This document shows positions 2,461-56,528 of a stretch of DNA of 64,000 nt, in pieces. A program made the position numbers and the translations under genes. The notes under the pieces were generated by a model. The model saw only the letters and a program-made list of their open reading frames with translations, was not told the DNA's origin and did not search any database. Source of the DNA: an uncultured Muribaculaceae bacterium (GTDB taxonomy: Bacteria; Bacillota_I; Bacilli_A; RF39; UBA660); the NCBI GenBank assembly GCA_964629735.1, contig CAZVQX010000001.1, forward strand, positions 86,984 to 150,983, read 5' to 3'. Every line of letters starts with the position of its first letter. The stretch's first letter is position 1.

Positions 2461-2537
2461 GGGTGATTAGCTCAGTTGGTTAGAGCACCTGCCTTACAAG
2501 CAGGGGGTCGTAGGTTCGAGTCCTACATCGCCCACCA
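2461..2537 (+). tRNA. tRNA-Val (anticodon TAC)
   Basis: Cloverleaf folded by hand. Acceptor GGGTGAT/ATCGCCC, anticodon loop CTTACAA, encoded CCA. Confidence 0.85.
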
Positions 2538-2538
2538 T

Positions 2539-2614
<76 letters not shown>

Positions 2615-2616
2615 GT

Positions 2617-2700
2617 GGAGGGATAGCGAAGTGGTCAAACGCGGCAGACTGTAAATCTGTTCCTTCGGGTTCGATGGTTCAAATCCATCTCCCTCCACCA
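2617..2700 (+). tRNA. tRNA-Tyr (GTA), class II with long variable arm
   Basis: Acceptor GGAGGGA/TCCCTCC, anticodon loop ACTGTAAA, variable arm TTCCTTCGGGTTC, CCA. Confidence 0.85.
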
Positions 2701-2714
2701 TTAATATTTGACCT

Positions 2715-2789
2715 TGCCTCGTAGCCAAGCGGTAAGGCACCACACTTTGACTGTGGCATGCGCTAGTTCGAATCTAGCCGAGGCAGCCA
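2715..2789 (+). tRNA. tRNA-Gln (TTG)
   Basis: U1-A72 start typical of Gln, D-arm TAGCCAAGCGGTAAGGC, anticodon loop CTTTGAC, CCA. Confidence 0.85.
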
Positions 2790-2797
2790 TTTTATAT

Positions 2798-2873
2798 GTT
2801 CCGTTAGCTCAGTAGGTAGAGCATTTGACTTTTAATCAAAGGGTCACAGGTTCAAATCCTGTACGGGACACCA
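2798..2873 (+). tRNA. tRNA-Lys (TTT)
   Basis: Acceptor GTTCCGT/ACGGGAC, anticodon loop CTTTTAA, CCA. Confidence 0.85.
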
Positions 2874-2878
2874 CTTAT

Positions 2879-2968
2879 GCCTGAGTGGCGGAATAGGTAG
2901 ACGCACAGGACTTAAAATCCTGCGAGACGCAAAATCTCGTGCCGGTTCAATTCCGGCCTTAGGCACCA
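2879..2968 (+). tRNA. tRNA-Leu (TAA), class II
   Basis: Acceptor GCCTGAG/CTTAGGC, anticodon loop CTTAAAA, long variable arm, CCA. Confidence 0.85.
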
Positions 2969-2988
2969 TTTATAATTAATTTTTAGTT

Positions 2989-3079
2989 GGAGAAATACCC
3001 AAGTCTGGCTGAAGGGGTCGGTCTTGAAAACCGAGAGGTCGGAAACGACGCGGGGGTTCAAATCCCTCTTTCTCCGCCA
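2989..3079 (+). tRNA. tRNA-Ser (TGA), class II
   Basis: Acceptor GGAGAAA/TTTCTCC, anticodon loop CTTGAAA, long variable arm, CCA. Confidence 0.85.
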
Positions 3080-3093
3080 TAAAAATTTAACAT

Positions 3094-3170
<77 letters not shown>

Positions 3171-3173
3171 TAA

Positions 3174-3249
3174 GGTCCCGTGGTGTAGCGGTTAACATGT
3201 CTGCCTGTCACGCAGAAGATCGCGAGTTCAATTCTCGTCGGGACCGCCA
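3174..3249 (+). tRNA. tRNA-Asp (GTC)
   Basis: Acceptor GGTCCCG/CGGGACC, anticodon loop CTGTCAC, CCA. Confidence 0.85.
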
Positions 3250-3254
3250 TTGTT

Positions 3255-3330
<76 letters not shown>

Positions 3331-3345
3331 TTAATATTTGAATAT

Positions 3346-3422
3346 GCGCCCGTAGATCAATTGGATAGATCGTTTGACTACGGATCAAAAGGCTATGGGT
3401 TCGACTCCTATCGGGCGCGCCA
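3346..3422 (+). tRNA. tRNA-Arg (ACG)
   Basis: Acceptor GCGCCCG/CGGGCGC, anticodon loop CTACGGA, CCA. Confidence 0.85.
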
Positions 3423-3424
3423 TT

Positions 3425-3501
3425 CGGGAAATAGCACAACTTGGTAGTGCACTTGGTTTGGGACCAAGGGGTTGCAGGTTCAAATCCTGTTTTCCCGACC
3501 A
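3425..3501 (+). tRNA. tRNA-Pro (TGG)
   Basis: C1-G72, acceptor CGGGAAA/TTTCCCG, anticodon loop TTTGGGA, CCA. Confidence 0.85.
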
Positions 3502-3506
3502 TCTTT

Positions 3507-3583
3507 GGGGAATTAGCTCAGTTGGCTAGAGTACCTGTTTTGCACGCAGGGGGTCAAGGGTTCAAGTCCCTTATTCTCCACCA
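3507..3583 (+). tRNA. tRNA-Ala (TGC)
   Basis: G3:U70 identity pair, anticodon loop TTTGCAC, CCA. Confidence 0.85.
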
Positions 3584-3929: not shown

Positions 3930-4032
3930 CAAACGGCACTCACATGATAGTTACTAACATAAAATGTTAAAATTATTATATGGGTGCTTTTTTTAAAATA
4001 ATTTATTTAGAATAAACCAAATGAGGTGTGTT

Positions 4033-4731
4033 ATGATTAACTTTATAGTTTGTGATGATAATGAGTTGATTCTTAAACAAGTAAATGAAATTATAGATAA
4101 TGTGATGATGAAAAATAAGTTATCATATAAAAAACATTTTTTTACCGATTATGATAATGATTTTTTGAAATTGATGAGGTCTAAAATGTCTTGTAAAGTA
4201 TATATACTTGATATTGAGACACCAACCTCTTCAGGCATCGACGTCGCGCGTATGATTCGAGAACGTGATTTTTCTAGTGTCATTATATTTTTAACCTCAC
4301 ATCATGAATTGGGTTATACTATTTTAAAGGGTGAATTTTTGTTTTTATCTTTTATAAATAAATATGATAATTATAAAGAAAAGTTAAAGTCTTCAATAGA
4401 AAAAAGTTTAGAAGTATTAAATAAGAGAGAAATAATTAGATTTGAGGATCGTGGAATTTTATATACAATTCCAATAAACGATATTTTATATATAACAAGA
4501 GATACAGTTGAAAGAAAATTAATAATTAAAACTGATAATGTGAAATATGTAATAAGTAAAACATTAACTGAAATGTTAGATATTTTGGGTAGTGATTTTA
4601 AACAGACACATCGTTCATGTATAATCAACACAAAAAGAGTGTCGGTTCTTAGTTATTCTAAAAAATTCATTTTATTTGATACTGGCCTTAAAATTGATTT
4701 AATAAGTTCAAAATACAGGGAAAGGGTCTAA
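4033..4731 (+). CDS. agrA: LytTR-family response regulator (AgrA/ComE-like)
   Basis: N-terminal receiver domain (ILDIETPTSSGIDVARMI, phospho-acceptor Asp) and C-terminal LytTR DNA-binding domain (FEDRGILYTIPINDILYI...QTHRSCIINTKRV). Start at the ATG at 4033 after the GAGGTG RBS. Confidence 0.8.
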   Translation: MINFIVCDDNELILKQVNEIIDNVMMKNKLSYKKHFFTDYDNDFLKLMRSKMSCKVYILDIETPTSSGIDVARMIRERDFSSVIIFLTSHHELGYTILKGEFLFLSFINKYDNYKEKLKSSIEKSLEVLNKREIIRFEDRGILYTIPINDILYITRDTVERKLIIKTDNVKYVISKTLTEMLDILGSDFKQTHRSCIINTKRVSVLSYSKKFILFDTGLKIDLISSKYRERV

Positions 4732-4735
4732 TGAT

Positions 4736-6025
4736 ATGGAGTTTGTAGTATCTGGAATAATAACAACTTTATCTTTTTTTTATGTTCAATCAAAATTAAT
4801 TAATGAGAAAATAAATTATAAGTCTATAATATTTTATATTGTTTTATTTTTTAGTACTGCTACCTTATTATTCACTTATGATTTAACTCAACATTATATT
4901 AAAATTTTATTAAATTTCACTATTTTAGTAATAAGTTGTTATATATTGTATAGAAAAAGCATTGTAAAAACATTTCTTGTGACTTTATTGACATTTATAT
5001 TATTATTTTTGGCTGAATTTTTATTTGTAATAGGTTTATCAATAACTTTAAATATAAGTATAGAACAACTTGATTTTAATTTAGGTAGTACAATTATTCC
5101 AAATATAATTATAAGTTTAATTTTAATATTAATTGTAAATATTAGAGGTGTGTTTTTAGCCTTGAAGAATATAATCAATAATTTTACAAACTATGAAAAT
5201 AAAACTTTTTTTTTAACGGGTATATATATTGTCTTTTTATATTCCCTTTTCTTTTATAGTCTTTATTTTAATGTGCACATGAAGATTTTTGTTTTGTTAT
5301 CTTTGTTTTTAATTATATTTTTAACAATATTATTATTAAAAATTTTTTTGGAAAAAAAGTATAACAAATCTTTAGAATCAGAATATAAAATGTTGATTGA
5401 TAATCTAAGTGAGTATGAAAAATTTTTGGAAGATTATCGACTGAAAAATCATGAAAATAACAATGATTTAATAATTTTACGAGAAATGGTCATCAATAAT
5501 AATGAAGCAGTAAAATATATAGATAATATATTAAATATTAAACCAAATGAAGATAAAGAATTATTATATAAGACCAAAAGAATTCCAACGGGCGGTTTGC
5601 AAGGATTATTTTACCAGAAATTATTAACTATAAAAACAAAATCGATACATTATCATTTGGAAGTTAGTAAAAAAATTCAACCCGAACAATTTAAAAAATT
5701 AGATAATTTTTCAAAACAAACTATTTGCAAAATTTCTGGTATATTGTTAGATAATGCAATTGAGGCAGTTGAAAATTTAGAACAAAAATATATAAGTTTA
5801 TATATTTATAATGAAAATGATTACTTTGTTATTTCAATTTCAAATAACTTCACTAACTGTATAGAAATAGACAAAATTGATAGCAAAACTTATTCTAGTA
5901 AAGGTAATAATCGTGGTTATGGTCTTAGTCTAGTTAAAAATATTGTTTCAAAGAATAGAAATATAAAACTTGAACGCGAATTTATTGGTGATATATTTAA
6001 ACAAAAAATAAAGTTAAAAATGTAG
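4736..6025 (+). CDS. agrC: AgrC/ComD-type (HPK10) membrane histidine kinase
   Basis: Six or seven N-terminal transmembrane helices. C-terminal GHKL ATPase with N-box (LLDNAIEA) and G-box (KGNNRGYGLSLVKNIV). Immediately downstream of the LytTR regulator. Confidence 0.75.
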   Translation: MEFVVSGIITTLSFFYVQSKLINEKINYKSIIFYIVLFFSTATLLFTYDLTQHYIKILLNFTILVISCYILYRKSIVKTFLVTLLTFILLFLAEFLFVIGLSITLNISIEQLDFNLGSTIIPNIIISLILILIVNIRGVFLALKNIINNFTNYENKTFFLTGIYIVFLYSLFFYSLYFNVHMKIFVLLSLFLIIFLTILLLKIFLEKKYNKSLESEYKMLIDNLSEYEKFLEDYRLKNHENNNDLIILREMVINNNEAVKYIDNILNIKPNEDKELLYKTKRIPTGGLQGLFYQKLLTIKTKSIHYHLEVSKKIQPEQFKKLDNFSKQTICKISGILLDNAIEAVENLEQKYISLYIYNENDYFVISISNNFTNCIEIDKIDSKTYSSKGNNRGYGLSLVKNIVSKNRNIKLEREFIGDIFKQKIKLKM

Positions 6026-6042
6026 ATTCCTCTACATTTTTT
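6021..6042. terminator. Bidirectional terminator shared by convergent agrC and agrD
   Basis: TGTAGA-TTCC-TCTACA hairpin flanked by T-runs on both strands. The agrC stop codon lies inside the stem. Confidence 0.55.
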
Positions 6043-6046
6043 AATA

Positions 6047-6169
6047 CTACTTTATTAAACTTTTTGGTGTTTTAGGTTCATCCATCCATAAAATTATACA
6101 AGCTGTACTAATTGAATTTGCAACTATTAATCCTAAATTAGCAATTAAGGCTGTTATAATTTTTTTCAT
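6047..6169 (-). CDS. agrD: AgrD-like autoinducing-peptide precursor (40 aa: MKKIITALIANLGLIVANSISTACIILWMDEPKTPKSLIK)
   Basis: Hand-translated small ORF absent from the ORF track. Perfect AGGAGG RBS 6 nt upstream. Amphipathic N-terminal leader, a single Cys in a hydrophobic core (ACIILWM), and an acidic/Pro tail (DEPKTPKSL) resembling the Listeria YEPKSP and S. aureus DEVEVPKEL recognition tails. Lies directly downstream of agrB. Confidence 0.6.
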   Translation of the reverse strand: MKKIITALIANLGLIVANSISTACIILWMDEPKTPKSLIK

Positions 6170-6782
6170 CTAATCCCTCCTTTTCTTTAATATATTTTTT
6201 ATAATTATTATAAGGTAGTTTAAAAAGGCTATAAACAAAAGGTGATATTAAAAGGCTTTGTATAAATAATGAGAAAATTATACAATTTGTAATAAAATTA
6301 TTTGTAATAAAAATAGTAGTAAAAGATAATATAATAACAATAATAGTTGAAGAGAATTTATATAATTTTCTTCTTTTTTTATTAATTATTGGTTTTTTAT
6401 ATGTATCTGCAGGTGAATTTTTAAAAAATAAAATAATAAATATTATATTCAAAAAAATTGTGCTAAAAATATCAAATACAATAAAGTTAGCAATGTATGA
6501 AAAGGTTAGAAAAACAAATGCAGATACAATAAGACAAATATGACTTTTGGTGGCATGTAGTCCAAATGAAAACATTCTAATAAAATTATAAAAAAGTAAT
6601 AAAATAATTAATTCTTCTAAAATACCTATAAAATAAGCAATACTAAAAATGATAAATGTTTTAGTAATTAATAAATAAATCCCCTCTAAACCATATTTTA
6701 TCTGTGATAATTTTTCATTATTATAATCTGGGTGATATGTTTTTATATATGAAATTAAAAAACTTAAAAACTTATCTTTCAT
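6138..6782 (-). CDS. agrB: AgrB-family membrane endopeptidase (AIP propeptide processing/export)
   Basis: Polytopic membrane protein containing FIRMFSFGLHATKSHICLIVSA, aligning to S. aureus AgrB [21 protein letters not shown] with the catalytic His and Cys conserved. Its 3' end overlaps the agrD start by 32 nt. Confidence 0.75.
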   Translation of the reverse strand: MKDKFLSFLISYIKTYHPDYNNEKLSQIKYGLEGIYLLITKTFIIFSIAYFIGILEELIILLLFYNFIRMFSFGLHATKSHICLIVSAFVFLTFSYIANFIVFDIFSTIFLNIIFIILFFKNSPADTYKKPIINKKRRKLYKFSSTIIVIILSFTTIFITNNFITNCIIFSLFIQSLLISPFVYSLFKLPYNNYKKYIKEKEGLDEKNYNSLNC

Positions 6783-6866
6783 GTGTACTCCTTTATACTA
6801 TATATATTATAAAATATTTAGGGACTATTTTATAATATAAGTTTAAAATTGGTGTTTTTGGTCTTA

Positions 6867-6900
6867 AGTAACAAATAATTACCTACCAGTTAACAAATAA
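6867..6900 (-). promoter_or_regulatory. Candidate LytTR (AgrA) binding site: two 12-bp direct repeats TTATTTGTTAAC / TTATTTGTTACT spaced 22 bp start-to-start, upstream of agrB
   Basis: Direct repeats seen on the minus-strand reading, about 85-118 nt upstream of the agrB start. LytTR regulators bind imperfect direct repeats spaced about 21-22 bp. Confidence 0.35.
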
Positions 6901-7077
6901 AGATTATTTAAACATCGTTAAACTTTATTAAGCTAAAATCAATAATATGTTTAAAAAATGGTGTAAAATTTTAGTTGTTGTATTATATTGTCGGATTTTA
7001 ATGGTCTGATTTTATTGAAAGTGAGATGTATAAGTTGTATATTAGAGATGTGATAAGAATAGAAGGGAGCGCTGTTT

Positions 7078-7290
7078 GTGAGAGGTAAGGTTAAATGGTT
7101 TAACAATGATAAAGGCTTTGGATTTATTGAATACAGAGATGGGGAAGATATTTTTGTTCATTATTCAGCTATTTTGTCACCAGGTTATAAAACCTTGGTA
7201 GAAGGACAGTATGTTGAATTTGAATTAATTCGTACCGATAAAGGTCTTCAAGCCAAAAATGTTATTGAAATAAAAACTGCTTTAGTATAG
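7078..7290 (+). CDS. cspA: Cold-shock protein, CspA family
   Basis: [15 protein letters not shown]...DIFVHYSAI contains the RNP1/RNP2 motifs. GTG start preceded by GAAGGGAG. Confidence 0.9.
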
Positions 7291-7300
7291 CAGTTTTTAT
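7273..7300 (+). terminator. Rho-independent terminator of csp
   Basis: AAAACTGC...GCAGTTTT hairpin followed by a T-run. The stop codon lies in the loop-proximal stem. Confidence 0.6.
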
Positions 7301-7349
7301 TTGTTTTATATTTGATATATGGTATAATTATAATAGGAGGATTGATAAT

Positions 7350-7877
7350 GTGAAGTTTAATATCAGAGGTGATAAGCTTACTGTAACTGAGCCAATAAGA
7401 GAATACATTTATGATAAAATTGGTCGTTTAGAAAAATATTTAGAGAATTCTGAAAACCTAACAGCCAATGTGTTAATAAAAGTTAGAGGTATAAATCAAA
7501 TTGTGGAAGTTACGATTCCTTTGAAAAAAATAATGTTAAGGGCGGAAGAAAGTCATAAGGATTTGTATGCCGCAATAGATCTAGTTAGTGAAAAATTAGA
7601 GCGTCAAATAAGAAAAAATAAAACGAAAATGAAAAAAATAAATAAAGAAGTTTTAAAAGAATTACAAACTAATTATGAAAATGATGAGGATACAAACGAT
7701 TATAAGGTTATAAGAAGAAAAGAGATTGAAATGAAACCGATGAGCGAAGAGGAAGCAATTTTACAAATGAACTTACTTGATCATGACTTTTTTATTTATA
7801 AAGATGCAGAAACCAGTAGTGTTTGTGTATTATATAAAAGAAAAGATAATAATTATGGTGTAATAAAAACTAATTAA
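7350..7877 (+). CDS. hpf: Ribosome hibernation-promoting factor, long form (HPF/YvyD)
   Basis: N-terminal S30AE domain and C-terminal dimerisation domain (AILQMNLLDHDFFIYKD). GTG start after an AGGAGG RBS. Lies upstream of secA as in B. subtilis. Confidence 0.85.
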   Translation: MKFNIRGDKLTVTEPIREYIYDKIGRLEKYLENSENLTANVLIKVRGINQIVEVTIPLKKIMLRAEESHKDLYAAIDLVSEKLERQIRKNKTKMKKINKEVLKELQTNYENDEDTNDYKVIRRKEIEMKPMSEEEAILQMNLLDHDFFIYKDAETSSVCVLYKRKDNNYGVIKTN

Positions 7878-50611: not shown

Positions 50612-50995
50612 ATGGCTTATAAACCAAGAAAAAGAAAAGTTAAAAAAAATATTCCAGAAGGTAATGCTTATATTCATTCAACCTTTAACAACACGATTGT
50701 AACAATTAGTGATAAAGAAGGAAATGCAATCAGTTGGGCATCAGCTGGAACACTAGGTTTTAAAGGAAGTAAAAAGTCAACACCGTTTGCAGCTGGTATG
50801 TCAGCTGAAGCTGCTGGTAAAGCTGCCGCTGAGATGGGAATGAAAAAGATAGATGTGTTTGTAAGAGGACTTGGTTCAGGAAGAGATACTGCAGTTCGTT
50901 CATTACAAACTGCAGGTTTAGAAATTACTTCAATTACAGACGTAACACCTATACCACATAATGGATGTCGTCCGCCAAAACGACCAAGAGGATAA
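50612..50995 (+). CDS. rpsK: 30S ribosomal protein S11
   Basis: Conserved sequence and operon position. Confidence 0.97.
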
Positions 50996-51017
50996 ATTAG
51001 AAAAGGAGTGTGTTAGA

Positions 51018-51968
51018 GTGTTAAATTTTGAAAAACCAGTATTTAAAATTACAGAATATGTTGAAAATAATAATTATGGTAAATTTGAGTTAGAGCCTTT
51101 AGAAAGAGGTTTTGGAACAACAATTGGTAATGCACTTAGACGAGTTATGTTATCTAGTTTACCTGGTAGTGCAATAGTTGCTGTTAAAATAGATGGCGTT
51201 ATGCATGAATTTCAAACGATTGAAGGCGTTGTTGAAGATGTGACATCAATCATATTGAATTTAAAGAATATTGTTATTAAAAATCATTCAAAAGAAATCA
51301 AAACAATAAAATTATCGGTTGCTAATGAGCAAGTAGTAACAGCCGCTGATATTGAGGTTGATTCTGATATTGAAATTATTAATAAAGATCAAGTAATTGC
51401 CACAATATCAAAAGGTGGTAAATTAGATATGGAAATGATTGTTGCTAATGGCCGCGGTTATGTACAATCGAATGAAAATAAAAAATTTATCGAAAATGAT
51501 AAATTAGGTTTTATATCAATTGATGCCCTTTATTCTCCTATTGAGAGAGTAAGTTATGAGGTTGAGGATGCGCGTGTTGGTCAAGATGACTCTTTTGACA
51601 AACTAACTTTTCATGTTTATACAAATGGTGGATTAAGGCCGGAGGAGGCTTTAGCACTTTCATCTAAAATTTTAATTGAACACTTAAAAATAATAACTGA
51701 CTTAAGTGAAATAACAGATCTAACAGGTGTTATGACAGCTAAAAAAGAGGATACAAAACAAAAGAAGCTGGAAACATCAATTGATGAATTAGAGTTTTCA
51801 GTAAGAGCATATAACTGTTTAAAGAGGGCAGGAATAAATACTTTAGGTGAATTAACTGAGAAAACTGAACTAGAGATGATGAAAATAAGAAATCTAGGAA
51901 AAAAATCATTAAAAGAAGTTGTTGATAAACTTAAAGAATTAGGACTAAAATTCCGGGATGAAGAATAG
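51018..51968 (+). CDS. rpoA: DNA-directed RNA polymerase alpha subunit
   Basis: VLNFEKPVFKITEY... N-terminal dimerisation domain and alpha-CTD. Probable GTG start at about 51018, 9 nt after AGGAG; the ORF track opens at 50961 and overlaps rpsK. Confidence 0.9.
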   Translation: MLNFEKPVFKITEYVENNNYGKFELEPLERGFGTTIGNALRRVMLSSLPGSAIVAVKIDGVMHEFQTIEGVVEDVTSIILNLKNIVIKNHSKEIKTIKLSVANEQVVTAADIEVDSDIEIINKDQVIATISKGGKLDMEMIVANGRGYVQSNENKKFIENDKLGFISIDALYSPIERVSYEVEDARVGQDDSFDKLTFHVYTNGGLRPEEALALSSKILIEHLKIITDLSEITDLTGVMTAKKEDTKQKKLETSIDELEFSVRAYNCLKRAGINTLGELTEKTELEMMKIRNLGKKSLKEVVDKLKELGLKFRDEE

Positions 51969-51983
51969 GTTAGGAGGAATATT

Positions 51984-52331
51984 ATGTATAGAAAACTAGG
52001 CCGAGATAATAAACACCGAAGAAGTATGTTGGCTAATTTAACTAAAGATTTAATTATGAATGAAGAAATTAAAACAACAGAAACAAGAGCTAAAGAAGTT
52101 CGTAAATTTTTAGATAAAATGGTTACATATGGTAAAAAGGGTACTTTAGTATCAAGAAGAAAAGTATTAGCTTTTTTACATAATGATAATGTTGCCACCC
52201 AAAAAGTATTTGACGATTTAGCTGTAAGATATGCTAACCGTAATGGTGGTTATACAAAAATTTTAAAATTAGATGAACGTCGTGGTGACGATGCATTAAT
52301 GGTTATTTTAAAATTAGTAGAAGAAGAGTAA
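51984..52331 (+). CDS. rplQ: 50S ribosomal protein L17
   Basis: [19 protein letters not shown]. Confidence 0.97.
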
Positions 52332-52347
52332 TAAACTCTTTTTTTTT
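52324..52347 (+). terminator. Rho-independent terminator ending the alpha operon
   Basis: AAGAGT-aataa-ACTCTT then TTTTTTT. The stop codon lies in the stem. Confidence 0.55.
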
Positions 52348-52493
52348 GGTTCTTTGTCAAATAGTTGGGTAAAATAAAGAAATATTAAAACTTTACTTAA
52401 TACCTATAATAGTATTTTGTTGTCTTTTTTTTTGGATAACAGCTGAAAGTATAAATTATTCAAAATACTACAGCAATCATCGAAATAGGTATA

Positions 52494-53277
52494 ATGAATT
52501 CAAACAATACTGCGAAGAAACCCCTCTTTTTTCATTGATGAATATGTTCAAGAAGCATGTAAAAACCTAAAAGAATATGAACCCTATCAAACAGATGTAA
52601 GTAACGCTTTTTTTCAAAATAAAATATCTAGTATATTAAGAATGTTAGATTTGTTTACACCGTTTTTAATAATCATAATGAATATTTGGGTAATTCGCTC
52701 TAAATTTAAAAGTGGCTATTTTAAAAATTTATTATTAAGAGAAAAATATTCAAAAGTAGTTTTTAAAGAGATTTTATAAAGTTACGGATTTGTTTTTGTT
52801 ATTCCTATTTCATTGATAATGGGTTTCCTCATTTTATATATTATTACTGGAACATTTGATCCTTCATATGCAATAAAACACGATACAACCTATGTTGTTG
52901 ATCATTTTTTAGAAATACTAATTCTTTTTCTAACATTTTATACAATTAGTTTATTTTTATATAATTTATTCATTGCCAATATTGCTTTATTTTTTGCCGA
53001 TAAAGGTATTAATAAAATTTTAGTAATCTTTGCTTCTTTTATTACTTTCTTTATATTAGGGCTAGCTTTTGAAGTTATAATATTTACAATAATTACACTT
53101 ACATTTAGAAATATTATGATCCCAGAATTATTATTTTATAGTTTTTGAAATTATGAACCAGCAGCAACTATTTTTTTTGAATTTGGTTATAGTTTATCCC
53201 TTTTCGTTTCGAGTTTAATAGTTGTTCTAATATTCTATAGTAATAAAGAGAAGGTGATTACCCAAAATGAAAAGTGA
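52494..53277 (+). pseudogene. Disrupted ABC-2-type permease-like membrane gene (one frameshift and two in-frame stops)
   Basis: Start MNSNNTAKKPLFF, then a +1 shift in a T6 run. The frame continues through the 52813-53148 ORF and beyond, interrupted by in-frame TAA (52777) and TGA (53146). Confidence 0.5.
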
Positions 53278-54001
53278 TTTTATTTATAAATTTTCAATGA
53301 AAATTGTTAATTGGTTATTATTTAAGTTACTAGTGGGATTAGTTTTAATCCTCTCAATTTATATGTTTTTTTCTAGTAATGTAGATATGAGCTATATAAA
53401 TCTACTTATTAGAGGTTATACATCTTCATGGTATATATTAGCAACAAACATTTTTATTCCTCTGATATTAATTATAAACTTATATTATGATTTCAACAAA
53501 AATTACCCATACTTTAATCGTTTAAAAAAGCATAAGCAATATTTATCTAGTTATTTTAAATCAGTCATCATTACTTACAGTTTTATCTTTTTGATTGCAT
53601 TAATAATAAATATGATTTTAATGAATTTGAGTAGTTATCGTCTGAAAATAGAAGTTTTTTTTAATGATAACTTTCCTAATATAATTCGTTTAATAATAGT
53701 TTTTATTAAAGTGTATTCTATTACTTTAATGATTTGTTTAATTAATTCATCATTAATCCAGTTGCTAAAAACACCATTTTTAACAATAGTAAACATTACT
53801 CTTTATTATTGGTATTTAAATCCCACTATATCAATAACAGAGATAGGTAAGATTTTTCCGATCTTTTTAAATCCTAGAAAATATATTATTCACTTAAATT
53901 ATAGTTCAGTTATTACAAAATTATTTATGTTTGGATTTTATCTGATTATATTACTATCAATTTTCAAAATATTTAATTCACTTATCTTAAAAAAAATTTA
54001 A
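53267..54001 (+). CDS. Polytopic membrane protein (ABC-2 permease-like, apparently intact)
   Basis: 244 aa with six predicted transmembrane helices. Confidence 0.4.
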   Translation: MKSDFIYKFSMKIVNWLLFKLLVGLVLILSIYMFFSSNVDMSYINLLIRGYTSSWYILATNIFIPLILIINLYYDFNKNYPYFNRLKKHKQYLSSYFKSVIITYSFIFLIALIINMILMNLSSYRLKIEVFFNDNFPNIIRLIIVFIKVYSITLMICLINSSLIQLLKTPFLTIVNITLYYWYLNPTISITEIGKIFPIFLNPRKYIIHLNYSSVITKLFMFGFYLIILLSIFKIFNSLILKKI

Positions 54002-54019
54002 ATTAAAAGGAGTAATTTC

Positions 54020-54665
54020 ATGATTTTTCGAAATGAACTCAATATTCCGAAAAGTAAAATATTCAGATTATTTTTAATTCAATTAATAGTATTAATAGCA
54101 GTGATGGTTATTTTTAACCTCACAAACAATCAAAGTTTAACACCGGAAGCTATCTTGGGGCTTACTCATGATAAAAACTCATTACCCATTGAATTATTCT
54201 TATATGGTTTAAATTGGGTTTCTACCATTATTTCATCTTATAGAAAGTTTTAAATTAGGTATTCAAAATTTATTTTTAAGAGGCTCTTTAAAAAAATGGA
54301 TAATAGTTAAAACTATATTAATTATAGGGTATGTATTAATATATAAGTTTATATTATATTTTATGATATCTTTTATCGGTAATATTAATTATCTAAATTT
54401 TCAAATGTTTTTATATTATCCAACCGATATTTTACTTTCTTTAATATTTATTTTTATAAGTTTACTAGTGTTAATTTTTTTTAAGGGTTATACAGTGAGT
54501 ATTATTATAATTTTTATACTTTTTTTAGGGATATTGACATTTCCTATTACAGTTGTAAATGTAAAAACTTATCAATATGTTTTATTATCCATTCTTTTAA
54601 TTTTAGTTGGTCTTTTTTATAAAATATTTAAAAAAAGATATTATAATATTTATGAAAAAATTTAG
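54020..54665 (+). pseudogene. Frameshifted membrane-protein gene (track ORFs 54020-54253 and 54363-54665 are one gene split by a -1/+1 shift near 54213-54253)
   Basis: The downstream ORF's frame is open back to 54213 and overlaps the upstream ORF's 3' end in another frame. Confidence 0.45.
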
Positions 54666-54673
54666 GAGGAATT

Positions 54674-55318
54674 ATGAAAATAGAAGTTAAAAATGTATCA
54701 AAAAGTTTTAAGAAAGTACCTATTCTTGAGGATATTAATATTAATTTTGAACCTGGCAACATCTATGCTTTAGTAGGTATAAATGGTAGTGATAAAAGTG
54801 TTTTTTTTAAAACTATTATGTGGTTTTTATAAACCGGACACAGGTGAAATACTAATAGATGGTATTGATATAATAAAAAATGGTGACTTTTCGCCATCAA
54901 CTCGTGCATTACTTGATTCACCATTCTTTTTGTCCGAATTATCTGGGTTAGAAAATTTAAGTCTTTTAGCCAAAGTCAATCTAACTTAACTAAAGAGGAT
55001 ATCAAAACAGCATTAGAAATGGTTAATCTAACAGAAGAAATGAATAAAAACTATATGTTTTACTCTTATGGAATGAAACAAAAACTTGGCATTGTACAAG
55101 TATTAATGGAAAATCCTGATTTAATGATATTTGATGAACCATTTAATGGAATAGAAGAAAAAACAGTTGTTAAATTAAGAAAAATATTTTTGAAGTTGAA
55201 AAAGGAGAAGAAAATAATAATTATTTCTACTCATATTAAAGACGATGTTAAGCTTTTGGCAGATTATATATACCAGTTTGATGATAAAAAGATAACTCTA
55301 ATAGAGAATGTTGAATAG
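54674..55318 (+). pseudogene. ABC transporter ATP-binding protein gene broken by two frameshifts
   Basis: Walker A GINGSxKS at the T8 run (54803-54810), then LLKLLCGFYKPDTGEILIDG in the +1 frame, then the signature-like YSYGMKQKLGI, Walker B LMIFDEP and H-loop STHI in a third frame (track ORFs 54783-54989 and 55019-55318). Confidence 0.55.
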
Positions 55319-55329
55319 ATAATAACTAT

Positions 55330-55349
55330 TAAAAGCCTAAGGCTTTTTT
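55330..55349 (+). terminator. Rho-independent terminator
   Basis: AAAAGCC-taa-GGCTTTT then TTT. Confidence 0.5.
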
Positions 55350-55775
55350 TAAAAAAATCTGTCAATAACTTTCAAAAAATCAAATAAAGTAGGTATGAAT
55401 TTAAAATATAAAGGGATTCCACCGGGAAATGATAATCACTGTTCTTATAAAGTGCTTAATAATTGAATAATAAACATGATAAGGTTATTTAAAAATCATC
55501 GTAATTTTGTAAGTCAGATATAATCAACAAAATTAATAGTAGTAACCAAAAAGGTATTTTTAATTTTAAAAAAGAATAAATTATGTAATTATAGTTTTCG
55601 TTTAAAATAATTTTGATGTTTGTTAATTTAATTAATAAAAAATAAAGACTGGATCTGTATTAATAGAAAGAATATGTTTTTGACTTAATCAATGAATACT
55701 TTGTCTAATTTAAATATAAAGTTGTTTTATGAATCGATATGCTATATAATTATAGTAGTGGAAGGTGTTGATAAT

Positions 55776-56528
55776 ATGAAAGTTTTAATAACAGGTGCGA
55801 GTTCTGGAATAGGTGCTGATATGGCAAGAATTTTTAGTAATCGTGGTTATGATTTGATTTTAGTAGCAAGGAATAAAGAAAAATTAGAATTATTAAAAAA
55901 AGAATTAAAAACAGATGTTAAAATAATTACAATGGATTTATCAAGTACTTTTAATTGTATGAAATTATATAATCGTGTTAAAAAAGAAAATGTTGATATT
56001 CTTATTAATAATGCTGGTTTTGGTGTTTTTGGTGAATTTACAGATACTAATTTAGATCGTGAATTAGATATGATTGACTTAAATATTAAAGCGGTTCACA
56101 CTTTAACTAAAGTTTTTTTGAAAGATTTTAAAGAAAAAAATAGTGGCTATATTTTAAATGTCGCTTCGTCTGCAGCCTTTACTTCAGGTCCTTTAATGGC
56201 CACTTATTATGCAACCAAAGGTTATGTTTTAAAATTAACTGAAGCAATATATGAAGAATTAAGAAAAACAAATAGTAATGTATATATTGGAGCTTTATGT
56301 CCAGGACCGGTTAATACAAATTTTAATAATGTTGCAGGAGTTCAATTTGGTGTAAAAGCTTTAGAGAGTTATGATGTTAGTGAATATGCAATAAAACAAA
56401 TGTTTAAAAGGAAATTAATTATCATACCTGGTTTCTCTAATAAGTTTGCTGCATTTATTATTAGATTATTACCAAGAAAATTAATGCTAAGAATAACTTA
56501 TCGTATTCAAAAAATGAAAGAAATATAA
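55776..56528 (+). CDS. SDR-family short-chain dehydrogenase/reductase
   Basis: TGASSGIG cofactor motif, and the catalytic YxxxK motif (YYATKGY). Start at the ATG at 55776. Confidence 0.8.
   Translation: MKVLITGASSGIGADMARIFSNRGYDLILVARNKEKLELLKKELKTDVKIITMDLSSTFNCMKLYNRVKKENVDILINNAGFGVFGEFTDTNLDRELDMIDLNIKAVHTLTKVFLKDFKEKNSGYILNVASSAAFTSGPLMATYYATKGYVLKLTEAIYEELRKTNSNVYIGALCPGPVNTNFNNVAGVQFGVKALESYDVSEYAIKQMFKRKLIIIPGFSNKFAAFIIRLLPRKLMLRITYRIQKMKEI

Follow-up and report, generated by a model that had tools for sequence, protein, structure and literature searches.

A probable relic of an accessory ABC exporter cassette downstream of rplQ in an uncultured RF39 bacterium

Introduction

The ATP-binding cassette (ABC) transporters of the LanFEG/CprABC type, which serve in immunity and resistance to lantibiotics, include NsrFE1E2G of S. 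mutans, a system with three membrane genes (PMC5786555). In the ATPases of the LanF type, a conserved glutamate replaces the glutamine of the Q-loop and gives the so-called E-loop (bioRxiv 10.1101/2025.10.09.681468). PmtABCD, the exporter of phenol-soluble modulins (PSMs) in S. aureus (PDB 6xjh), has two ATPases and two membrane proteins. By analogy, the LanFEG/CprABC transporters, NsrFE1E2G included, and the Pmt peptide exporter appear to be the closest functional counterparts of the locus described here, a run of broken genes located downstream of rplQ (ribosomal protein L17) in a stretch of 64,000 nucleotides, the window (contig CAZVQX010000001.1), from an uncultured bacterium of the RF39 lineage. 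We conclude, with a probability of about 0.9, that positions 52347 to 55431 of this window are the non-functional, decayed relic of an accessory five-gene ABC exporter cassette which is intact in a sister species. Horizontally acquired genes which did not succeed or lost their use are the source of many bacterial pseudogenes (Liu, Harrison, Kunin & Gerstein 2004, PMC522871).

An earlier note on this DNA, made from the letters alone, had described broken frames for a permease, a second membrane protein and an ABC ATPase after rplQ, and had left the choice between genuine decay and homopolymer errors. Here, all positions are given in window coordinates; L-numbers designate the loci or contigs compared with the window, and P-numbers the homologous proteins.

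Results

The genes after rplQ are broken orthologs of an intact cassette

The intact ortholog of the cassette (L088 7199-10645) lies between the same neighbors in a sister metagenome-assembled genome (MAG; GCA_028706395.1, locus L088, also L089). At this locus, rplQ is followed by the genes of a 145-amino-acid (aa) secreted protein, of three membrane proteins of 300, 251 and 218 aa and of a 214-aa ABC ATPase, and then by the genes of a short-chain dehydrogenase (SDR), a P-type ATPase and a desulfoferrodoxin. Alignment of the L088 proteins to the window by tblastn gave E-values of 1e-75 to 1e-128, in shifted frames, for all genes except that of the 145-aa secreted protein, which had no match in the window. 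The list of open reading frames (ORFs) and the three-frame translation showed the broken permease, membrane-protein and ATPase frames where the earlier note had located them, and their homology to the intact L088 genes now identifies them. Lesions were called from a base-level pairwise alignment with L088 combined with tblastn, and at least ten were counted. The elements of the relic are the following.

52347-55431, plus strand: probable relic of the five-gene cassette, whole span
52347-52375, plus strand: junction of a deletion of about 715 bp; the corresponding sequence of L088 (about 6955-7668) holds the promoter region and the gene of the 145-aa secreted protein
52376-53277, plus strand: pseudogene 1, ortholog of the 300-aa six-helix membrane protein (tblastn 78% identity, E=4e-128, two frames)
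53267-54001, plus strand: gene 2, 244-aa membrane protein, nearly intact, the one long open frame of the region
54020-54665, plus strand: pseudogene 3, ortholog of the 218-aa membrane protein (two frames, recovered by tblastn as two pieces; 11-bp deletion after 54237)
54674-55318, plus strand: pseudogene 4, ABC ATPase of the LanF-like E-loop type (PF00005, TIGR03740; 89% identical to P0001)

Gene 1 is damaged from its translation signals onward. Within the deletion junction, the GGAGG ribosome-binding site (RBS) of the ortholog reads GGGTA in the window, and the ATG start codon is replaced by AAA at 52376-52378. A single C is deleted after 52537; this deletion is present in the window genome and in one other run, while the site reads CATTGCATG in five of the six other same-species assemblies covering it, and in L088. 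The first frameshift is thus a lost C and does not lie in a T6 run as had been proposed. The ATG at 52494 that had been taken as the start of the gene is spurious, because the true N-terminal part is encoded in another frame from 52376. Comparison with the ortholog also confirmed the two in-frame stops noticed earlier: TAA at 52777-52779 replaces a lysine codon (AAA), and TGA at 53146-53148 replaces a tryptophan codon (TGG).

Gene 2 had been regarded as intact. It is indeed the only long open frame, but an additional T at 53997-53999 brings the stop seven codons early and abolishes the ATGA overlap with gene 3. Moreover, its product carries the substitution E218K at a near-invariant position of its family. 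The split of the following membrane-protein gene, previously placed near 54213-54253, corresponds to the 11-bp deletion after 54237.

The ATPase is distributed over three frames, as claimed before, with one shift in a T8 run (T7 to T8 at 54801-54808) and a second one due to a 1-bp deletion after 54976. The signature YSYGMKQKL, the Walker B motif MIFDEP and the H-loop STH are all present across these frames. However, a GGT to GAT change at 54791-54793 replaces a glycine of the Walker A motif by aspartate, so that the motif reads GINGSDKS in the window as against G-x4-G-K-[ST] in 120 of the 120 nearest intact homologs. In the set of the 119 other homologs (P0002-P0120), 78 columns are conserved at 90% or more; four of them deviate in the window alone, and none in L088. 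These lone deviations, the Walker A change and the E218K substitution of gene 2 are, as far as sequence conservation tells, signs of relaxed constraint. The 715-bp deletion, the Walker A substitution and the defect of gene 2 were absent from the earlier note.

A search of about 5.8 billion protein clusters with the frame-corrected ATPase returned as best intact match P0001 (214 aa, from L088), with 89% identity, the next best being at 64% or lower. Because the best intact ATPase is only 89% identical and comes from a sister species, no intact allele of the window's own species has been sampled. A functional transporter cannot be made from the window locus.

The lesions are shared by independent assemblies

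Contigs of the same species (L001-L007, L099 and L100) were retrieved through exact matches to three protein queries, namely rplQ, the C-terminal ATPase fragment and the 244-aa ORF. They derive from seven independent sequencing runs (SRR25722605, SRR20818732, SRR8925797, SRR8925798, SRR30200692, SRR32546283 and DRR835041) and were compared as assembled contigs. Their identity to the window over this region is 99.8-100%, and no contig lacks a frameshift or stop that it covers, the 52537 deletion excepted. All contigs spanning the 54237 deletion (L001, L002, L003 and L007) are identical at this site, and the three-piece ATPase of L002, L099 and L100, from three runs, is identical to that of the window. 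Inside the relic, the contigs differ by the extra C after 52537 (five of the six covering contigs), by a single-nucleotide polymorphism (SNP) at 54232, by a further SNP at 52377, which falls on the orthologous start-codon position, and by a T8/T7 length polymorphism at 53171-53178, where L005 differs from the window. The last variation is ordinary homopolymer drift in the dead gene 1, on which selection no longer acts.

These comparisons bear directly on the possibility that the damage is an artefact of assembly or base calling, with homopolymer indels disguising intact genes. Two of the lesions do lie in T runs, namely the T8 at 54801 and the TTT at 53997, which is located beside an A8 run, and L005 has T7 where the window has T8 at 53171. 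Against this, wherever contigs of the seven runs cover a lesion, they show identical bases. Furthermore, most lesions fall outside homopolymers; these comprise the deletions of about 715 bp and 11 bp, the two nonsense substitutions, the Gly to Asp replacement, the loss of the ATG and a GTT to GT deletion. Finally, the window contains about 40 other A/T runs of at least 8 bases, and the long ORFs, several of which include such runs, are unbroken. Since the seven runs agree, most lesions are not in homopolymers and the other long ORFs with A/T runs remain open, assembly error can be set aside, and we consider it very improbable. The damage exists in the organism itself, which settles in favor of genuine decay the choice left by the earlier note, and the decay appears to be fixed in the species as sampled.

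A second way of sparing the genes would be recoding, by reading TGA as tryptophan, by programmed frameshifting or by phase variation at homopolymers. In Mollicutes, TGA is read as Trp (code 4), and some MAG records label the lineage 'Tenericutes/Mollicutes'. The TGA at 53146 stands precisely where the ortholog has the Trp codon TGG, and one of the frameshifts lies in the T8 run. Nevertheless, TGA terminates five of the 66 long ORFs of the window (secY, adk, map and two others), those of secY, adk and map being overlapping stops, while TGG occurs 73 times. The standard bacterial code applies. The TAA codon, the 11-bp deletion, the lost start codon, RBS and promoter and the Walker A aspartate are beyond rescue by recoding or slippage, and the length of the T8 run is constant in three independent runs. 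Because the runs share the lesions, and because of the nature of these lesions, homopolymer error, TGA recoding and phase variation are rejected together; expression by recoding is hardly credible.

The ATPase is of a probable exporter type and not of the ECF type

We then consider which kind of transporter was lost. The frame-corrected ATPase matches PF00005 (ABC_tran) with 79 bits, for a cutoff of 25. Its best curated model is TIGR03740 (lantibiotic protection ABC ATPase), which gives 152 bits with the window sequence and 167-178 bits with the intact relatives, and this model outscores by a wide margin those of DrrA, GldA, ECF, CcmA, lactococcin 972 and Pmt. At the position of the Q-loop glutamine, 119 of the 120 intact homologs have glutamate (...LIE.P), while the window (ALLDSP) and P0001 (ALIDSP) have aspartate. 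A structure model of gene 2 gives a confident ABC-2 membrane domain, and the predicted fold is that of the type V (ABC-2) exporters such as PmtD, NosY, ABCG, ABCA, Wzm and TarG, with six helices.

Genomes of Bacillus and Streptococcus carry an energy-coupling factor (ECF) block after rplQ, and the locus could be a decayed module of this kind (ecfA-ecfA'-ecfT), as found in many Bacilli. The idea draws on this positional analogy and on secondary matches of the ATPase to the ECF models. These matches reach 82-89 bits for cutoffs of 315-330, compared with 152-178 bits for the LanF-type model. There is, in addition, one ATPase gene rather than two, scans of the window with Pfam and NCBIfam gave no EcfT match, and the membrane ORF has the predicted fold of a type V exporter. 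The SDR gene follows rplQ directly in 25 of 52 relatives, and those inspected have no ecf genes at this place. The expectation of an ecf-truA block after rplQ is therefore not borne out; the norm of the lineage is the SDR gene, at less than 500 bp from rplQ in 25 of these 52, and the cassette represents an optional insertion. An ECF module, which would have two ECF-type ATPases and an EcfT, was rejected, and its probability is close to nil. Since the frame-corrected ATPase scores best with TIGR03740 and far above the ECF models, the sequence comparisons support an exporter of the ABC-2 type resembling lantibiotic immunity systems, in agreement with the assignment made in the earlier note (152 bits as against 82-89).

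Membership of LanFEG proper is established neither by the ATPase score nor by permease matches. The curated LanE and LanG permease families gave no match to the membrane subunits of the cassette. The three membrane sequences of the window had no Pfam match at E-values up to 1, and NCBIfam returned only a chance-level CcoS (E=0.47). Likewise, the intact membrane and small proteins of L088 had no Pfam match at E-values up to 10, with only a chance-level YtjB in NCBIfam (E=0.094). A word-indexed search for homologs of gene 2 returned proteins of the same and of the sister species alone, to which an exhaustive HMMER search added 20 distant relatives. For the 145-aa protein, the word-indexed search retrieved no match but the protein itself, and its single-sequence structure model (predicted local distance difference test, pLDDT, of 36) is too poor to give a fold. 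Paralogy of the three membrane proteins was suggested by tblastn without composition correction and unsupported by BLASTP with this correction.

The cassette is optional and recurs at other loci

In L008, a locus of a close relative, the flanks are 97% identical to those of L088, yet the cassette is absent and the gap between rplQ and the SDR gene is only 310 bp; the indel corresponds to L088 7029-10813. The similarity of the window to this cassette-less locus stops at 52346. Comparison of the orthologous region, which the earlier note had advised, thus yielded both an intact copy (L088) and an empty site. Among 52 relatives having both genes, the gap is below 500 bp in 25, contains inserts of 0.9-2 kb in 16 and of 2.7-6.1 kb in 11. 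The inserts of other relatives carry unrelated genes, for example those of membrane proteins or of a pilin-like protein that has a hydrophobic segment at its N-terminus. Because L008 lacks the cassette and the gaps and inserts vary among the 52 relatives, the junction between rplQ and the SDR gene is variable, and the cassette is optional at this place.

Intact copies are found in other uncultured Bacilli. Each encodes a small protein (123-153 aa) with a signal peptide, a membrane protein of about 300 aa, one or two membrane proteins of about 210-250 aa and an ATPase. They occupy the rplQ-SDR junction in L022 and a site upstream of rpsL in L090 and L093; in L096 the neighbor is an integrase fragment and in L097 murF-mraY, and a further copy is present in L098. 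The small signal-peptide genes that open the intact copies are the following.

L088, 7199-7636
L022, 10450-10848
L090, 4651-5055
L096, 2123-2584
L097, 2229-2642
L098, 3644-4015

Their products align weakly and evolve fast. What they share is limited to the signal peptide and, at the C-terminus, an invariant G-x-W; pairs of cysteines are present in some of them. Scans with Pfam and NCBIfam, the lactococcin 972 models included, matched them to no known family. A role as toxin, cargo or accessory protein is conceivable for the small secreted protein.

At L096 (GCA_977045155.1), positions 5783-7238 adjoining the intact cassette contain the gene of a helix-turn-helix regulator together with short ORFs matching Phage_integrase and ResIII. 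From these surroundings, transfer of the cassette along with mobile DNA may be suspected.

The cassette is less divergent than its flanks

The DNA identity between the window and L088 is 86.7% over the cassette, as compared with 78.6% upstream (the ribosomal-protein and secY-rpoA block) and 72.4% downstream. By Nei-Gojobori estimates, the synonymous divergence (pS) of the four cassette genes is 0.40, 0.26, 0.18 and 0.23, and that of 16 flanking genes 0.37-0.66. Because the synonymous divergence is below that of the flanks, the cassette, especially its 3′ two-thirds, would have been exchanged between the lineages after their split. The sequences suggest that this exchange took place by recombination at the conserved flanks, before the decay. 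The ratio of nonsynonymous to synonymous divergence (dN/dS) of the cassette genes is 0.14-0.42, which suggests that most of the divergence accrued under selection and that the inactivation is comparatively recent.

A dN/dS value of 0.32 for gene 2 raises the question of whether only a part of the cassette is dead, gene 2 (53267-54001) having retained or acquired a separate role, for instance by pairing with another ABC ATPase encoded elsewhere. Its ORF is open and identical in five assemblies, and its ABC-2 membrane domain is modelled with confidence. On the other hand, the promoter, the translational coupling, the cognate ATPase and the partner membrane proteins are lost, and the product carries both E218K and the C-terminal frameshift. 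In an operon that died recently, a frame still open over 244 codons is no surprise, and the dN/dS value mainly reflects the time before inactivation. A separate function of gene 2 is thus improbable, and we favor the decay of the cassette as a whole.

Neighbors of the relic and host sequence

The window belongs to an uncultured lineage of gut Bacilli. It is very AT-rich, with a G+C content of about 27%, and the closest relatives of its rplQ are all found in gut MAGs, of animal or human origin, labelled Bacilli, 'Tenericutes' or Mycoplasmatota. The features outside the relic are the following.

50961-51968: rpoA, upstream of rplQ
51984-52331, plus strand: rplQ, intact, left flank of the cassette site (PF01196 match; identical protein on 7 contigs)
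55331-55347, plus strand: terminator-like hairpin followed by a T run, 3′ of the ATPase pseudogene, kept in the intact ortholog
55776-56528, plus strand: SDR gene, intact, right flank (PF00106; 79.5% identical to the SDR of L088)
2461-3583: cluster of 13 tRNA genes (Val, Thr, Tyr, Gln, Lys, Leu, Ser, Met, Asp, Phe, Arg, Pro, Ala)
4021-6782: agr-like quorum-sensing locus, with a LytTR response regulator (4021-4731), a GHKL histidine kinase (4736-6025) and an AgrB homolog (6138-6782, minus strand)

The mechanically called rpoA ORF has 335 codons and overlaps rpsK, and gene calls on identical contigs give 316 aa (L001 and L004) or 335 aa (L002); the true start is probably located downstream of the first ATG. 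On the other side of the relic, the SDR gene is the usual direct neighbor of rplQ in the lineage. About 145 bp located 5′ of it in the window, at 55542-55686, are missing from L088. The last 70 bp or so ahead of its start codon are conserved at about 90% and probably represent the SDR promoter and leader.

Scans of the region for regulatory or mobile elements were largely negative. Promoter-like sites were fewer than in shuffled controls, the terminator scan gave nothing besides the hairpin 3′ of the ATPase, and Rfam gave no match. Terminal repeats or ends of mobile elements were sought in the region, and none was convincing.

The tRNA cluster accounts for a local G+C peak of 0.37-0.40 and, being devoid of tRNA-Trp, is uninformative on the genetic code. 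The agr-like locus is situated in a patch of about 20% G+C, and its AgrB homolog matches PF04647 with 105 bits. The presence of an agr locus in the genome had been thought to add interest to the broken genes; the two are 46 kb apart, and nothing ties them together.

Discussion

The comparison with the intact sister copy leads us to propose the following history. The ancestral cassette comprised the genes of a small Sec-secreted protein, of one ABC ATPase and of three integral membrane proteins, at least one of which has the type V/ABC-2 fold. The exporter itself would have consisted of an ATPase dimer and a heteromeric membrane part, and it may have acted like LanFEG, CprABC or Pmt-type transporters by clearing the membrane of amphipathic or hydrophobic peptides. 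For the secreted protein encoded alongside, a part as cargo, toxin or extracellular helper may be envisaged. After having been shared or exchanged between the two lineages following their split, the cassette would have been inactivated fairly recently, once it was unneeded, according to a use-it-or-lose-it scheme. The deletion of about 715 bp removed the promoter and the first gene, and the other lesions either accumulated afterwards or were already there.

Several observations weigh against this interpretation. The ATPase reaches only about half of the TIGR03740 cutoff (152-178 as against 309.75 bits), and family-profile searches found no match for four of the five ancestral proteins in Pfam, NCBIfam, PADLOC or PDB sequences. 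Neither a lantibiotic cluster nor a two-component system adjoins the cassette in the window or in L088, L022, L090, L093, L096, L097 and L098. The exchange is deduced from one sister genome and from Nei-Gojobori estimates in a very AT-rich genome, and the pS of the 5′ gene (0.40) overlaps the values of the ribosomal-protein genes (0.37-0.52). Finally, gene 2 is still an open frame with a dN/dS value of 0.32.

For annotation, these results imply that the 3 kb after rplQ should be described as pseudogenes of an accessory ABC-2 exporter, neither 'repaired' nor split into small hypothetical proteins. The locus provides a clean, population-confirmed case of an optional cassette discarded in a small-genome gut bacterium, and the intact sister copy makes it possible to name every lesion. 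A literature search on RF39 with ABC pseudogenes retrieved only general papers on pseudogenes.

From the LanF-like ATPase and the Pmt-like membrane fold, one may suspect that the cassette serves in peptide export or self-protection; if this were shown, it would represent a new competition or defence module for a poorly known part of the gut microbiota. One may go further and suppose a widespread, undescribed cassette family of uncultured gut Bacilli, made of a fast-evolving Sec-secreted protein of about 100-130 aa with the invariant C-terminal G-x-W motif, two or three membrane proteins without a family model and a LanF-like E-loop ATPase. This family would form a new secreted-toxin and self-protection (bacteriocin/immunity) module, mobile between lineages and settling beside ribosomal-protein operons, and the lineage of the window would have lost the toxin gene first and then let the useless immunity transporter decay. 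We regard this extension as speculative and rather unlikely in its full form.

Comparison with known systems

The likeness to the LanFEG/CprABC transporters lies first in the single ATPase of about 210-230 aa, with TIGR03740 as its best model, an S-x-G-M-K-Q-K-L signature and, in 119 of 120 homologs though not in the window or P0001, the E-loop glutamate. It extends to separate membrane subunits of about 220-250 aa with the type V/ABC-2 fold predicted for gene 2, and to an extra extracytoplasmic protein that loosely recalls LanI. However, the cassette ATPase reaches about half of the family cutoff (152-178 of 309.75 bits), and the membrane proteins match no permease family. The cassette also has a third membrane protein, of 300 aa, with an outside loop of about 60 aa, and its small protein has a plain signal peptide and no lipobox. 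Lantibiotic genes or a two-component system are near none of the copies, the E-loop residue is aspartate in the window and in the sister, and the window copy is dead.

PmtABCD shares about 15% identity with the cassette and differs by its two ATPases and two membrane proteins. No PSM-like genes are present at the window locus, and the 375-bit cutoff of the PmtC model is far from reached. The cassettes of the lactococcin 972 type, in which a Sec-dependent bacteriocin precedes a dedicated ABC transporter, resemble the present one in their order, with a small Sec-signal protein first, followed by one or more membrane components and an ABC ATPase, and in the combination of a fast-evolving small protein with a conserved transporter. 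The lactococcin 972 system has one large membrane protein with seven transmembrane segments, whereas the cassette has three ABC-2-like membrane proteins of about 220-300 aa. An assignment to this type was rejected: the ATPase gives 87-114 bits with TIGR03608, below the cutoff of 254.85, and the small protein belongs to no Pfam or NCBIfam family.

The pattern described for bacterial pseudogenes of horizontally acquired origin (PMC522871) fits more closely. An optional cassette at a variable site, nearer to the sister copy than the core flanks are, has been disabled by frameshifts, stops and a deletion, and nothing of substance distinguishes it from that pattern. The window locus is thus an ordinary pseudogenised accessory operon of a well-documented type; what is less ordinary is the uncharacterised cassette family from which it comes, widespread in gut Bacilli.

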